Shown: positions 401-61,278 of the stretch, piece after piece
Layout of the letters: every line of letters starts with the position of its first letter
How positions within the stretch are numbered: position 1 is the stretch's first letter
NCBI GenBank assembly: GCA_964016885.1
Contig: OZ024746.1
Span: forward strand, 37,758,001 to 37,822,000
DNA: 64,000 bases
Direction of reading: 5' to 3'
DNA from: Eledone cirrhosa
Taxonomy: Eukaryota
Notes under the pieces: generated by a model
What the model was told of the DNA's origin: nothing
The model's input: only the letters and a program-made list of their open reading frames with translations
The model's database searches: none
Translations under genes and position numbers: made by a program

Positions 401-817
401 ATAACTATATTGATATCGTCTACATAACGAGAGTATAGTTATAAGAACACCCCCACTAGAGAGGACTAACAAGTATAAAAGACACAGAAACGAGAAGCGA
501 AAACCAACCAAACAGTGAGTGTGTTCTGTTATTAATTCTGGCAATATTACACAAATATGACCCTCCCCAAGTATAACAATATATGTATATATATATATAT
601 ATATATATATATATATATATATATATATATATATATATATATATATATATATATATATATATATATACAGTATTTTCCGTTGTGTTGTAATATAAATATT
701 ACACACAGTAGATTATCAGCTCACGTAGAGTTTGCTCGACGGTTCCAGTTGTAGTTCCAAAAGTAATCCGGAGAAAAATAGAAAGATTTGAATGGATACA
801 GTTTAGTTGAAAGGAAT

Positions 818-934
818 TTATTGACACGTGTTTCTATAACAGTTACATAACCTAAAACAGCTATCTACAAACTTTTAGTTATGCAGACATTCAATATTTC
901 AATGTTATTATTTACTGTCATTTCATCAGAATAA
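818..934 (-). ncRNA. Type I hammerhead ribozyme, family A 3' pLTR
   Basis: Reverse complement of the motif at 5231-5347. Confidence 0.85.
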
Positions 935-1912
935 TATTACTGAGGACCTATTTAGTTTTTATAGAGAATATTAGGAGGGAGGGGTGAAGTTGTTAGAAGA
1001 ATAGTTGAAGGAGTGGTTTTTCGATAGCAGTGAGAATTCTTGGTGGCAGTGAGTAATTAGATTCCCATCTGTTGTTTTGACATTTTTTATAGAATATATT
1101 ATTGGTTATTTTTCTAAATCTATAGAAGGATTAGAGATAGTGAAGATATGCGTGGTTGGTTTTGTGTTTGCACTTAATTAACATTCAGACTTAAATTTTT
1201 CTTTCAAGCGTACGTATCCTTTCACCCACGCATTCACACACAAATATATTTGCACACCTCTACAAAATACATATACACACAATTCACATATTCATACTTA
1301 CATATATATACACATGCATACACATATATACACACATGCATTTATGTACATACATACGCGCTCATGTGTATACATTTTCATACTCAACTTATCTTTATAT
1401 ACACACGTATAGACACACACATATATACATACATACTCTAGTCCATGTGTACACACATACACATACATACACATCCATATACACATATATACATACACAT
1501 ATATACATACATATATATATATATATATGCATATATATATATATATATATATATATATATATATATATATATATATATATATATATATATACATATATAC
1601 ACATACACACACATACACACATATACATATATATATATATATAAGCACTTTAATACATGAATACACTTACATCTAACTATACACATCAAACATATATATA
1701 TATTTACTTATTTATATACATTTTCACATATATATACATACTTATGGACGTTTTTAGACACATTCATTATCGCATATTTGTACCTATTCTCATCAGCATA
1801 TCTTTTCATTATTAGTATGGTAATTTAAGGTTATTAATATATGTTGAGAAGAGATTGTTTTTATATTTTTCTAACTAGATTAAGGTTTATATAGTTGGGG
1901 GATGTCCCTCTT

Positions 1913-57092: not shown

Positions 57093-58152
57093 CGTTAATT
57101 TATTAACCCGCCATTGAACCACATTGGCACTTGGTTGGACAATACATGCGTACCGTGGCGCCTTGTGCGTGAAGGGACGTATTTCATATTACTACTACCT
57201 CCACTAACGTTGAGAACAAACCGGGTCATTCCGACTGCTGCTGGCAACAGCGGTGGTTAGTTTGACCAACCTCCTTTTGCCTCTATCTTTGCTACCGCCC
57301 TTGATAAACCTGTTCTACATCATCCACTCTCATCCCAGGAACAGATTTTGATAGCGCTAGTTTGTGATTTAAATTCAGGAATTTTATATTCTTTGAATGA
57401 AAAGAACCTTCTGACGAGAATCTCTCTTTGCAACGAAGGCTGTATGGTCTACGTTTTATTTTTGGGATTCGAAACCGATCGGTAAAAGTAACTATAGTAG
57501 GTAAAGTCAATTTTTTAGAATTTATTTTGAAACTTTTTCATTATTTACTAAACCTTGTTTATATTTGTTCTGGCTCGTTAATTTATTAACCCGCCATTGA
57601 ACCACATTGGCACTTGGTTGGACAATACATGCGTACCTTGGCGCCTTGTGCGTGAAGGGACGTATTTCATATTACTACTACCTCCACTAACGTTGAGAAC
57701 AAACCGGGTCATTCCGACTGCTGCTGGCAACAGCGGTGGTTAGTTTGACCTACCTCCTTTTGCCTCTATCTTTGCTACGGCCCTTGATAAACCTGTTCTA
57801 CATCATCCACTCTCATCCCAGGAAGAGTTTTTGATAGCGCTAGTTTGTGATTTAAATTCAGGAATTTTATATTCTTTGAATGAAAAGAACCTTCTGACGA
57901 GAATCTCTCTTTGCAACGAAGGCCGTATGGTCTCCGTTTTATTTTTGGGATTCGAAACCGATCGGTAAAGGTAACTATAGTAGGTAAAGTCAATTTTTTA
58001 GAATTTATTTTGAACTCTTTCATTATTTACTAAACCTTGTTTATATTTGTTCTGGCTCGTTAATTTATTAACCCGCCATTGAACCACATTGGCACTTGGT
58101 TGGACAATACATGCGTACCTTGGCGCCTTGTGCGTGAAGGGACGTATTTCAT
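57093..58152 (+). mobile_element. Second retrozyme-like array (483-bp unit, about 2.2 copies) nested in the (TA)n of family H unit 7
   Basis: Units start at 57093, about 57576 and about 58058. The host unit is interrupted at 'catgcatata' (57085) and resumes at about 58153. Confidence 0.88.
57889..57972 (+). ncRNA. Type I hammerhead ribozyme (second copy at 57406-57489)
   Basis: acctt-CTGACGA-gaatctc...gggattc-GAAA-ccgatcgg-TA-aaggt. Confidence 0.9.
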
Positions 58153-59273
58153 ATATATATATATATATATATATACATATATATACATACATGCACACAG
58201 GTACACATACATATATGCACACATCAGTTTAGCCGACGTTTATTATAACGCAGCTTTGTTCGTTTGTTTGTCAACAAACAGAACAGCCTGAATTTATGCC
58301 ATACGGTGTTAAGGCAACCACGTCACCTTTTTGTTCAACACTGACACAGGAACGATGTACTAGCTTCAAGCTTGTTAGCTATCATCAGCACCGTTTACCC
58401 ATCTGCCAGATAGTTGAACAAAAAGGTGACGTGGTTGCCTTAACACCGTATGGCATAAATTCTGGCTGTTCTGTTTGTTGACAAACAAACGAACAAAGCT
58501 GCGTTATAATAAACGTCGGTTAAACTGATGCGTGCATATATGTATGTGTACCTGTGTGCATGTATGTATATATATGTATATATATATATATATATATATA
58601 TATATATATATATATATATATATATATATATATATATATATATATATATATATATATATATATGCATGCTACTGTACGTCTGTATACATATATGTATGTA
58701 CGTATACATACATACTTACATTTAAGTAAGTGCCATAGTAAGAGTGAGAAATGAAATTTCGTTTTCATTTTTTTCAACTTATCGCTTTCGGTATGCCTGA
58801 CCGATTTACCTCACTCAATATGCAAATTAGGCTACTCAGCCGTTAATTTTCATAAGGAAATTATATACTTTCGAACGTTCAACTATCTGGCAGATGGGTA
58901 AACGGTGTTGATGATAGCTAACAAGCTTGAAACTAGTACATCGTTCCTGTGTCAGTGTTGAACAAAAAGGTGACGTGGTTGCCTTAACACCGTATGGCAT
59001 AAATTCAGGCTGTTCTGTTTGTTGAGAAACAAACGAACAAAGCTGCGTTATAATAAACGTCGGCTATACTGATGCGTGCATATATGTATGTGTACCTGTG
59101 TGCATGTATGTATATATATGTATATATATATATATATATATATATATATATATATGCATGCTACTGTACGTCTGTATACATATATGTATGTACGTATACA
59201 TACATACCTACATTTATATATATATATATATATATATATATATATATATATATATATATATATATATATATAT

Positions 59274-61278
59274 ATTGGTAAACGGAATAGAAAATGCTGA
59301 CAAATTGTTCACAGTTGAAAAATAGTTTAATTAGGAATAAAAGAGCATTAGTAATTGTATGGGTTAGTATTCAGCTGTGGTTTTAAGTTTTTTATGTTTT
59401 TACCGGTTGCGCATTTCTAAATGCTTTTCAAAAATAATTTTGAGATAGAGCGTCCGTATTGTTTGCTCTGATCTGATTAGTTTTGGGAATTCTACCTGTT
59501 TTTATGTTAAAAAAGTGACTCCAGCGCTACTTGGTGTTGCAAAAATTCTTGTGGTCAAAACAATTTTGATTGGTCGGTATAGGTCATGTGAATGTTAAAA
59601 ATTGATTTGTGTAGTAGTAAAGTGTTCGATGTTGTGATAATGGTTAGCAGGGATGTGTGTTCGAACCGCAGCATGTTGACAGTTCAAATGGCTATTAAGA
59701 TATGTGTGTGTGTGTGTGTGTGTGTGTGTGTGTGTGTGTGTGTGTGTGTGTGTGTGTGTGTGTGTGTGTGTGTGTGTGTGTGTGTGTGTGTGTGTGTGTG
59801 TGTGTGTGTGTGTGTGTGTGTGTGTGTGTGTGTGTTTGTGTGTGTGTTTGTGTGTGTGTGTGTGTGTAGCAGATTAATTCGTTAAAATTAATATTCCCTA
59901 CAACTTAGCCAAGAGAATCTGTATTATATTCTCCAATAAAAACACCTGCTACTTACGGCTACAAGAACTAAAGGGCACACTCATAGGCAGGGACTACCCT
60001 GCATCACTACTTGACAATGGAATCCAACGTGCTCTAAAACTCAGTACCCAGGACCTTAGACACCCTAAAGTAAATCAACCGAAACTAAAAGCTCTTCAAT
60101 ACATCTCCACACACAACGCCCTCAACAATGAGGCCTTTGACACCATCCTCCAGAACATCCCTGTGTTGAAAAAGGACCATAGAATGAACCAAATCCTACG
60201 AACACACGATATCATAAAGAGCAAAAGACAATCCAAGTCAAGAAAAAAAAAATATATATATGTGTATATATATATATATATATATATATATATATATATA
60301 TATATATATATATATATATATAGTGAATATATGTATATATATATATAGTGAATATCATTTCACACCTTTTATTGTTAAGATTTTTGATGTTCTATTAAGA
60401 GAACCGATTTTACTGAAAATATCGCATAATGTACACCATTTTACCAGGAAGGAAAAAAAATACTGGTCCACACACACACCCACACACATTCTCACACACA
60501 CACACACACATATATACACACACACACACATACACACGCGTACATTAACATACAAAGAGACTTATACACACACACACACACACCCACTTCTCCGTATAAG
60601 ACAAAAGCTGAAAAATATCTTTTGACATGCTAAAATACCCCCCACTGCTTACAAACACATTCCTACTGACCATCCCGCTACCACGAATTACTCTGCTACA
60701 CACACACACACACACACACACACATACACACACACACACACACACACACACACACACACACACACACACACACTTATCTTAATAGCCATTTGAACTGTCA
60801 ACAGGCAGCGGTTCGCACACACATCCCTGCTAACCATTATCACAACATCGAACACTTTACTACTACTACACACACACACATATTTGTTGTGAAAGAGTCA
60901 TTTCTCAGTCTTGTCGCAAAATCAATTTTTTACATTCACATGACCTCTACCGACCAATCAAAATTGTTTTGACCACAAGAATTTTTGCAACACCAAGTAG
61001 CGCTGGAGCCACTTTTTTAACATAAAGGTAGAATTCCCAAAACTAATCAGATCAGAGCAAACAACACGGACGCTCTATCTCAAAATTATTTTTGAAAAGT
61101 ATTTAGAAATGCGCAACCGGTAAAAACTTAAAACCACGACTGAATACTAACCCATACAATTACTAATACTCTTTTATTCCTAATTAAACTTTTTACAACT
61201 GTGAACAATTTGTCAGCATTTTCTATTCCGTTTACCAATATATAATAACTTGTGTGTTACACCTCTATTCTTTTAATT
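59274..61278. mobile_element. Neptune-related PLE family E fold-back; centre about 59883
   Basis: 59274-59880 is the inverse of about 60685-61240, and the right arm extends about 40 nt further. 59890-60240 encodes NIPYNLAKRIC..RLQELK..L..RDYP..IIKSKRQ, similar to family D. Both arms carry a degenerate HHR, TTGAAAA..GCAA-ccgg-TA. Confidence 0.82.

Follow-up and report, generated by a model that had tools for sequence, protein, structure and literature searches.

Two-armed Penelope-like (PLE) insertions in Eledone cirrhosa pair one long outer end (L) with one short outer end (S). We collected genome-wide copies by exact patterns and inspected 141 two-armed insertions from six families. Among these, 135 are L+S, three are atypical and three are unresolved, and neither an L/L nor an S/S pair is found. 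In family A, all 42 coordinate pairs genome-wide are L+S (chance 0.5^42). The outer ends are sharply bimodal, and their positions are fixed throughout the genome rather than scattered at random. The L+S pattern is real and stricter than one window can show, yet it is restricted to two-armed copies.

A sequence-only reading of the window, the whole 64,000-nt stretch analysed here, had proposed this rule from 13 intervals. All 13 indeed hold oppositely oriented, head-to-head arms with one outer end longer (Table 1). Stop points recur within families, as that reading had stated: for example, family A has L at 668 and 28029 and S at 8979 and 31331, with an offset of 110 nt. The one-sided tail is likewise present in all 13, although the range of 40-160 nt given for it started too high, since tails span about 30-161 nt (D ~30, E 56-60, C 61, G 77, A 110 and B 161 nt). 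Outer ends were also said to abut (TA)n, which fails at 14077-14605, where the long end adjoins (GA)n-rich DNA. Finally, the rule had been called window-wide; it is strict for two-armed copies, but one-armed copies are common and make up 23 of 60 family-A loci (~38%; 19 S-only and 4 L-only).

Table 1. PLE insertions and related features of the window; PLE types are assigned from motifs or similarity
Feature	Position	Strand	Ends, joint and tail
Family A insertion, Hydra-type PLE, two nearly full-length arms	668-8979		L 668, S 8979, joint 4861/4863
110-nt tail, long arm only, family A	668-777	-	
Intact 773-aa ORF, RT and C-terminal GIY-YIG, family A left arm	1913-4234	-	
Right-arm ORF of the family A copy 668-8979, frameshifted near its end	5552-7900	+	
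Short family E insertion	13385-13650		L+S
Fold-back, known from this window	14077-14605		tail ~130 nt
One-armed copy	~16238-16378		L only
One-armed copy	~19053-19223		S only
Family F, L arm and 35-nt S arm	22342-23140		tail 88 nt
Fold-back, known from this window	23808-24312		tail ~60 nt
Relative of family B	24392-26700		S 24392, L 26700, tail ~125 nt
Family E insertion	26898-27677		S+L
Second family A insertion	28029-31331		L arm 3.1 kb, S arm 199 nt
Extra example: fold-back, one-sided extension, hammerhead-like core	31440-31869		
Extra example: family F S arm joined to L arm lying inside the tail	35809-35907		arms non-overlapping
One-armed copy	~36015-36052		S only
Extra example: G-related stub	36076-36243		L+S
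Family B, Hydra-type, CxCX5C linker	36260-41436		S 36260, L 41436, tail ~160 nt
One-armed copy	~41452-41524		S only
Family G stub (coding Hydra-type family)	41586-41730		tail 77 nt
Family C, Neptune-type	45459-50822		L 45459, S 50822, tail 61 nt
Family E, non-coding tandem units of ~500 nt	53899-59215		L 53899, S 59215
Family D, relative of C	59274-61278		S 59274, L 61278, tail ~30 nt

Family A is young, with more than 1,000 copies and a unit of 3.6 kb; the arms of 668-8979 are 98.4% alike over 8.2 kb. The genomic ends of family A number about 1,000-1,400, and those of C, D, G and E run to thousands. Family A has the hallmarks of an EN+ PLE, namely one ORF that encodes both RT and a GIY-YIG endonuclease (EN), pseudo-LTRs (pLTRs) from partial tandems, 5′ truncation and an inverted copy with a one-sided tail. 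The 773-aa protein is not recognised by Pfam and has 305 homologs, the best at 33-44%. Like the Hydra clade (PMC8557442, section 11), it carries all five motifs RWK, DKT, CxCX5C, CxxC and CxH (found in 86-99 of 100 homologs), together with a C-terminal EN and insertion into (TA)n; Hydra elements are usually under 3 kb, shorter than the family A unit. The linker and CxxC/CxH were seen in family B, and the RT part alone in family G. Judged by motifs, families A, B and G are Hydra-type. Family C has DKG and a CX4CxxC linker ahead of its C-terminal EN (Neptune elements have CX2-5CxxC) and is Neptune-type by motifs, as is family D by the similarity of its fragments alone.

Both C and D are L+S, and the proposed reach of the rule to Neptune holds for these Neptune-type families. 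The Naiad label is wrong for the families checked: no Naiad was found, the EN being C-terminal in A, B and C and the motifs of a six-frame scan being DKT and DKG, not DKA. Non-coding remnants cannot be classed by the Naiad features (N-terminal EN, DKA and CxC domain). The interval 41586-41730 is a stub of coding family G rather than a non-coding insertion.

In non-coding family E the L+S inverted signature is clear in four of six insertions, and 53899-59215 combines tandem units with extra internal inversions. No ORF was seen in the family F insertion 22342-23140. A type I hammerhead fold with a three-way junction and a U3-A8 core is predicted just upstream of S in family G, and a minimal hammerhead motif with stems I and II in family E; family A has the core motif but lacks the three-way junction fold. 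Rfam gave no hammerhead among the 150 matches listed of 310; these were low-complexity miRNA matches. In the Hydra families, a CTC...GAG stem lies 5-10 nt beyond each end; by a strict rule it is missing from F, and H and the relative of family B show just the first half.

Fold-back chimeras occur in long reads, and the insertions might accordingly be artefacts of assembly or of long reads, or else two separate copies side by side. Such an origin is highly improbable. The asymmetry is fixed per family, arms of the same family B copy can diverge by as much as 4.5%, the arms meet without TA between them, and target duplications occur. In addition, four joints between opposite strands were seen again in the raw Illumina reads of two other libraries, representing two samples, though these joints come from outside this window.

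Target duplications of 12-16 nt flank the two-armed unit in 8 of 35 informative flanks, compared to 1.3 in shuffles; the other 27 have none. Because the duplication surrounds the arm pair, these eight cases each represent one insertion event. Given their length, the target cut looks staggered.

The arms of an insertion are also closely matched. In family A, arms of the same insertion show 39 differences over 18,730 columns, the partner is at least as close as any other arm in 26 of 30 cases (ties counted in), and 20 variants occur nowhere but in both arms of a single insertion. The corresponding count for family B is 13 of 18, with 70 private shared variants, and subfamilies are never visibly mixed within one insertion in either family. 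At one site in 668-8979, both 3′ pLTRs share a base absent from both 5′ pLTRs. An apparent haplotype mismatch between the arms of two insertions (L069 and L070) was an alignment artefact. At the level of sequence comparison, both arms of an insertion are shown to come from one source sequence, and gene conversion between arms could account for part of the shared variants.

One insertion (L301) carries an identical pre-tRNA-Met piece with an identical junction in both arms, and this junction occurs exactly twice in the genome. No element lies next to the tRNA gene behind the capture, and the captured piece stops at the T-run terminator of that gene. We rejected a tRNA-headed SINE family since the junction is confined to this insertion, the single captured-sequence chimera among 132 insertions scanned by words. 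The simplest account of L301 is that a single cDNA snapped back and was copied.

These observations bear on whether one or two RNAs were copied. Twin priming on two RNAs of one source locus, by an asymmetric dimer with one subunit restricted to L and the other to S, would make long overlaps without strand displacement, and a shared haplotype would follow if one locus were active at a time. We nevertheless regard this as unlikely: it requires an extra asymmetry, whereas Frangieh et al. 2024 (PMC11167929) report no start-site difference between strands; L301 would demand the same template switch twice; and A and B lack mixed subfamilies.

Next, we compared the inner ends. In family A they are uncorrelated between arms (rho 0.07, n=37), with the S arm further 5′ in 14 of 37 pairs and the L arm in 21; four L arms lie wholly inside the tail and do not overlap the S arm. 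The S arm reaches further in 13 of 19 family B and 12 of 37 family G pairs, and 15 of the 37 G joints are equal within 2 nt. The RNA stretch represented in both arms is up to 4 kb. Truncation points had been described as variable, and joints do vary, but with pile-ups at fixed sites in C, D and G. These pile-ups are given as windows because the apparent sharp ones, precisely at 135 in G and at 232 in D, come partly from reference polymorphisms. In C, D and G they lie about 30 nt beyond a TATA-like box and may mark RNA 5′ ends. In family A, six S arms end at 305-309 with partners of 34-3308 nt, and no TATA box lies at -30 of joint pile-ups.

Microhomology of at least 2 nt is found in 15 of the 26 family A joints without filler, compared to 0.2 in simulation; fillers or mismatches mark 11 of 37 joints. 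The corresponding figure is 1 of 19 joints in family B, so that microhomology is weak overall, and reference polymorphisms lead to an undercount in G and D. The unpaired central bases of L197 and L301 belong to the S arm.

With a single primer, an L-started cDNA would fold back and copy itself, the endonuclease would resolve the hairpin at S, and later central deletions would leave unequal arms. Self-priming (PMC3846280) and endonuclease resolution of the tail (PMC8557442) have both been proposed, and this route accounts for L+S pairing, for the variants common to both arms, for L301 and for the short symmetric stubs of family G. It is nonetheless quite unlikely in view of the inner ends. The S arm is frequently the longer one, four family A pairs have no overlap, and the unpaired central bases are S-arm bases; later deletion would not place the ends of six S arms within 5 nt of each other with partners of any length. 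Moreover, S-only copies exceed L-only copies, and in Anolis the RT can start at S in vitro.

We think it probable, on sequence evidence, that both 3′ ends of a staggered (TA)n cut prime on one RNA at two sites and that the cDNAs then join. The sequence-only reading had suggested two primings, each at its own defined site on the RNA, and head-to-head joining of the cDNAs; this remains the best fit, narrowed to two-armed copies and a staggered cut, and with some family labels changed. The scheme would start from the fixed, L+S-paired outer ends, where family A has 3-5 nt of TA microhomology: the element itself reads TATAT beyond L and closes with TAT at S, matching the target. It would involve a single event, as the eight target duplications indicate, and one source sequence for both arms. 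Each site would be available once per RNA, placing the two primers at different sites, so that L+S results without any strand preference. The enzymes would stop independently, often running off the RNA 5′ end, and the cDNA 3′ ends would anneal via 1-6 nt or join with short fillers. Either a trailing enzyme may displace the leading cDNA, so that the overlap is copied twice, or one cDNA may snap back and the other capture its sense copy. S-only copies would be those with the L primer left unextended.

In L1 twin priming, the internal site used by the second primer varies, and overlap between the segments is not the rule. Here, by contrast, the second site has a fixed position, and most arm pairs share hundreds to thousands of nt. 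The distinction by overlap drawn in the sequence-only reading applies to 33 of 37 family A pairs, but not to the other four. Priming of both target ends on the same RNA, with cDNAs annealing by microhomology at the inversion joint, is described for L1 (PMC2912911) and would be common to both systems; target duplication and joint microhomology are shared as well, above chance but partial.

The layout itself is mostly known from published work. EN+ PLEs have an inverted 5′-truncated copy and, on one side, a tail of 30-40 bp (Craig et al. 2021, PMC8557442 Fig. 2; Arkhipova et al. 2013, PMC3846280; Schostak et al. 2008, PMC2377424), and our insertions share with them head-to-head arms, partial tandems, a tail at one end, the (TA)n target and target duplications. 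Their tail is described as 'optional' or 'often only at one end', compared with exactly one per two-armed copy here, no L/L or S/S pair being present among the 141; it reaches 160 nt here, and both arms are traced to one template. For the Anolis Poseidon PLE, Frangieh et al. 2024 demonstrated in vitro that the protein cuts and extends both strands and that two internal RT start sites define the tail. Our insertions probably have these features in common with it and share the AT-rich target; the predicted dimer may be common too. Their main text draws no link between the two sites and the two arms (neither 'head-to-head' nor 'palindrom' occurs in it), nor does it address strict complementarity or arm joining. 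Animal non-LTR retrozymes (bioRxiv 10.64898/2026.07.22.740005) resemble family E in being non-coding and tandemly arranged and in their type I hammerhead, for which family E has a minimal motif, but family E adds the L+S inverted signature of coding PLEs.

We did not find strict L+S pairing in the published literature. Also new here are the haplotype and private variants shared by the arms, the shared pre-tRNA capture, the uncorrelated arm lengths with either arm longer, and the 12-16-nt duplications round the pair.

The origin of PLE inverted repeats and one-sided tails is an open question (PMC8557442), and steps following first-strand synthesis remain unvalidated (PMC11167929). Strict L+S pairing across two clades, a single template and independent arm lengths make sharp in vitro predictions for the existing assay, and a suitable enzyme is available in the window, namely the intact 773-aa protein of young family A. 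For annotation, fold-backs of this sort can pass for TIR elements or assembly errors. More tentatively, and as a possibility we hold somewhat short of an even chance, dual-site twin priming on a single RNA may be how Hydra- and Neptune-type PLEs, together with their retrozymes, normally integrate: a dimeric RT would dock on two repeated RNA stems (CTC...GAG) and copy the RNA twice, the first-strand cDNAs serving as each other's second-strand template. If true, one mechanism would explain the tail, the inverted pLTR and second-strand synthesis.

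Each Penelope-like element (PLE) family treated here has a fixed long (L) and a fixed short (S) outer end, the tail being carried by the L arm only; loci are written L plus three digits. The window (G000:C6:37758001-37822000) belongs to an AT-rich, 3.0-Gb animal assembly, G000, and is crowded by numerous (TA)n tracts as well as inverted repeats. Every one of the 13 intervals that the sequence-only reading had listed as fold-backs contains two arms in opposite orientation. Each arm terminates outwards in an element 3′ end, and one of these two ends is longer. The family A ends at 668 and 8979 are repeated at 28029 and 31331, with L and S 110 nt apart. 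The family A element continues with TATAT beyond L and ends in TAT at S, which gives each end microhomology with the target. The window also holds three more two-armed and four one-armed inserts, and therefore a window-wide rule, as claimed earlier, is not borne out; overall, the earlier observation is confirmed in part and its interpretation supported in part.

Exact words just inside S occur genome-wide 2,871 (A), 550 (B), 5,877 (C), 8,509 (D), 35,824 (E) and 5,773 (G) times, and the family A patterns (TA)+L and (TA)+S 1,051 and 1,425 times. The family A matches listed on contig C1 up to 185.7 Mb comprise 78 L and 100 S ends. They form 42 head-to-head pairs, every one of them L+S (L left in 26, S left in 16); 35 L and 53 S have no exact-match partner. 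Sixty loci fetched among the first 67 clusters comprise 35 L+S, one L whose partner stops 49 nt before S, one unresolved, 19 S-only and 4 L-only copies. For the other families, pairs were selected by an inner word present on both arms; L+S pairs number 22/22 (B), 20/21 (C), 28/29 (D, where the exception runs on into a tandem copy), 26/26 (G) and 4/6 (E). The samples, nearly all drawn from the beginning of C1, favour young copies with exact words and by design miss short L-only arms. Across all six families, 135 of 141 two-armed insertions inspected are L+S, three are atypical and three unresolved. None is L/L or S/S, pairs whose frequent occurrence the sequence-only reading had named as contrary to its rule.

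Several lines of evidence point to one event and one template. A 12-16-nt duplication is present on both sides in 8 of 35 flanks containing non-TA letters (four of 16 nt, in A), compared to 1.3 expected and a maximum of 4 in 300 shuffles. The arms of one insertion resemble each other more closely than they do other copies in 26/30 (A) and 13/18 (B) cases, with 20 (A) and 70 (B) private variants common to both arms; an apparent arm mismatch in two loci was rejected as an artefact. The strongest single case for one template is L301, in which both arms switch at the same base into a pre-tRNA-Met and then run on to its 5′ end, the captured piece spanning the 5′ leader to the Pol III (T-run) terminator. 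Since this junction is found nowhere in the genome except in these two arms, the source tRNA-Met gene (L325, on contig C3) has no adjoining element and the capture ends at the terminator, the chimera formed once and was then copied into both arms. L301, the sole such chimera in a scan of 132 pairs, demonstrates that a PLE switched templates or that RNAs were joined by it. Given this case, we consider the use of two RNAs unlikely.

The two arms end independently. In family A (n = 37, 35 loci and two window copies) the positions of the inner ends show no correlation (rho 0.07), the S arm reaching further 5′ in 14 and the L arm in 21. Four L arms (34-81 nt) lie wholly within the tail. Six S arms all end 305-309 nt from L with partners spanning 34-3308 nt, which argues against random later deletion. 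Self-priming has been offered as a reading of head-to-head palindromes (excerpts of PMC3846280), yet snap-back of a cDNA from a single primer seems quite improbable here: an L-started cDNA folding back cannot yield a longer S arm, and an S-started one has no tail.

The best explanation, and in our view a probable one, is dual priming at a staggered cut on one RNA, followed by joining. In each pLTR such an RNA would offer a single L site and a single S site; two primers on it would therefore be forced to different sites, giving L+S without strand bias, and the absence of strand bias matches both datasets. Two enzymes would halt independently, the cDNA ends would be joined and each cDNA completed on the other, the overlap being copied twice via displacement or via a snap-back captured by the second cDNA; L301 suits the latter. 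Family A joints overlap by 2 nt or more in 15/26 cases without filler (0.2 expected) and in 15/37 overall (p = 0.004), family B joints almost never (1/19). Inner ends pile up at 126-143 nt in G (55/74), 203-216 in C (29/44) and 221-232 in D (22/38), after 5/27 C, 5/24 D and 3/22 B loci were dropped as complex. As a TATA-like box lies ~30 nt upstream of these pile-ups, the enzyme probably runs off the RNA 5′ end in all three. Several short copies centre on a 4-nt palindrome, which annealing between two like cDNA ends would be expected to produce.

Raw reads came from two RAD libraries (X23/X24) of 'organism C', which may not be the assembly's species. Four opposite-strand family A joints, for which no direction is recorded and which do not include the window's own, each occur in both samples, and 348 reads pass from L into (TA)n. 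That the fold-backs are an artefact is highly improbable.

At 6/6 ends of A, B and G, CTC lies 5-10 nt past the end and GAGY 13-36 nt beyond (background 0.7-1.7% per position); the motif recurs in 1/4 further short ends and may fix L and S. At some family B ends (7/29 S, 4/29 L) one or two extra repeats of the outermost 9-10 nt are present, a pattern resembling telomerase-like slippage and re-priming by the RT.

The family A protein carries RWK, DKT, CxCX5C, CxxC and CxH, marks of the Hydra clade in excerpts of PMC8557442, and is Hydra-type by these motifs; B and G, the latter a coding family, resemble it. Family C has DKG and a C-terminal endonuclease preceded by a CX4CxxC linker; it is by motif Neptune-type, and D is related to it. 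E is a tandem hammerhead element that is non-coding. An N-terminal endonuclease, as in Naiad, was found in no element examined.

Features in the window and at fetched loci
Feature	Location	Description
Family A insertion	668-8979	pLTR-ORF-pLTR in each arm; left ORF intact, 773 aa
Family G stub	41586	145 nt
Family D copy (L301)	G000:C1:22188800-22189900	pre-tRNA-Met in both arms
Family B copy (L123)	G000:C1:41419340-41422364	one large internal deletion common to both arms; 525-nt unit of pLTR and ORF start, perhaps a non-autonomous derivative
Family B end repeats, S	L141, L144, L211, L214, L219, L220, L222	
Family B end repeats, L	L132, L140, L220, L230	
Putative high-copy derivative of pLTR and ORF start	3637-4800	~2,900 'organism C' reads exit at 3637/3638 into mixed sequence; return joints from 4552 and 4795; not seen in 60 G000 loci
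Family A words	1750-5600	near-identical matches in runs under four organism labels (share 0.60-0.82), weaker in others; close relatives or horizontal spread
Hydra-like endonuclease remnant	9040-9935	old; ends not recognisable
Fold-back	369-474	106 nt, RT motif fragment of another element; similar sequence in L240
Decayed LINE	19421-22117	AP-endonuclease and RT fragments; unrelated to the L+S rule
Further repeat family	42198-43147, 25265-25377, 35908-35997	inverted pair ~950 nt apart
Repeats inside family E array	57093-58154	483-nt direct repeat in two copies, plus a nested inversion

Excerpts of PMC8557442 describe an inverted truncated copy and a 30-40-bp tail, often on one end, ascribed to endonuclease resolution, and call the mechanism open. 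Those of PMC11167929 have both strands cut and extended, the tail defined by two start sites, strands that do not differ and a predicted dimer; PMC4209133 reports, in part, minimal hammerheads, opposite-strand pairs and a U3-A8 variant, and PMC2912911 twin priming in L1. The portions seen of PMC2377424, PMC8969392, PMC9977147, PMC12910113 and a retrozyme preprint (bioRxiv 10.64898/2026.07.22.740005) add nothing on pairing, and our literature searches found neither strict pairing nor twin priming stated for PLEs. The layout is already known; what is new is the strict L+S rule, together with evidence for a single template and for independent arms, and it places a testable constraint on the open PLE mechanism.
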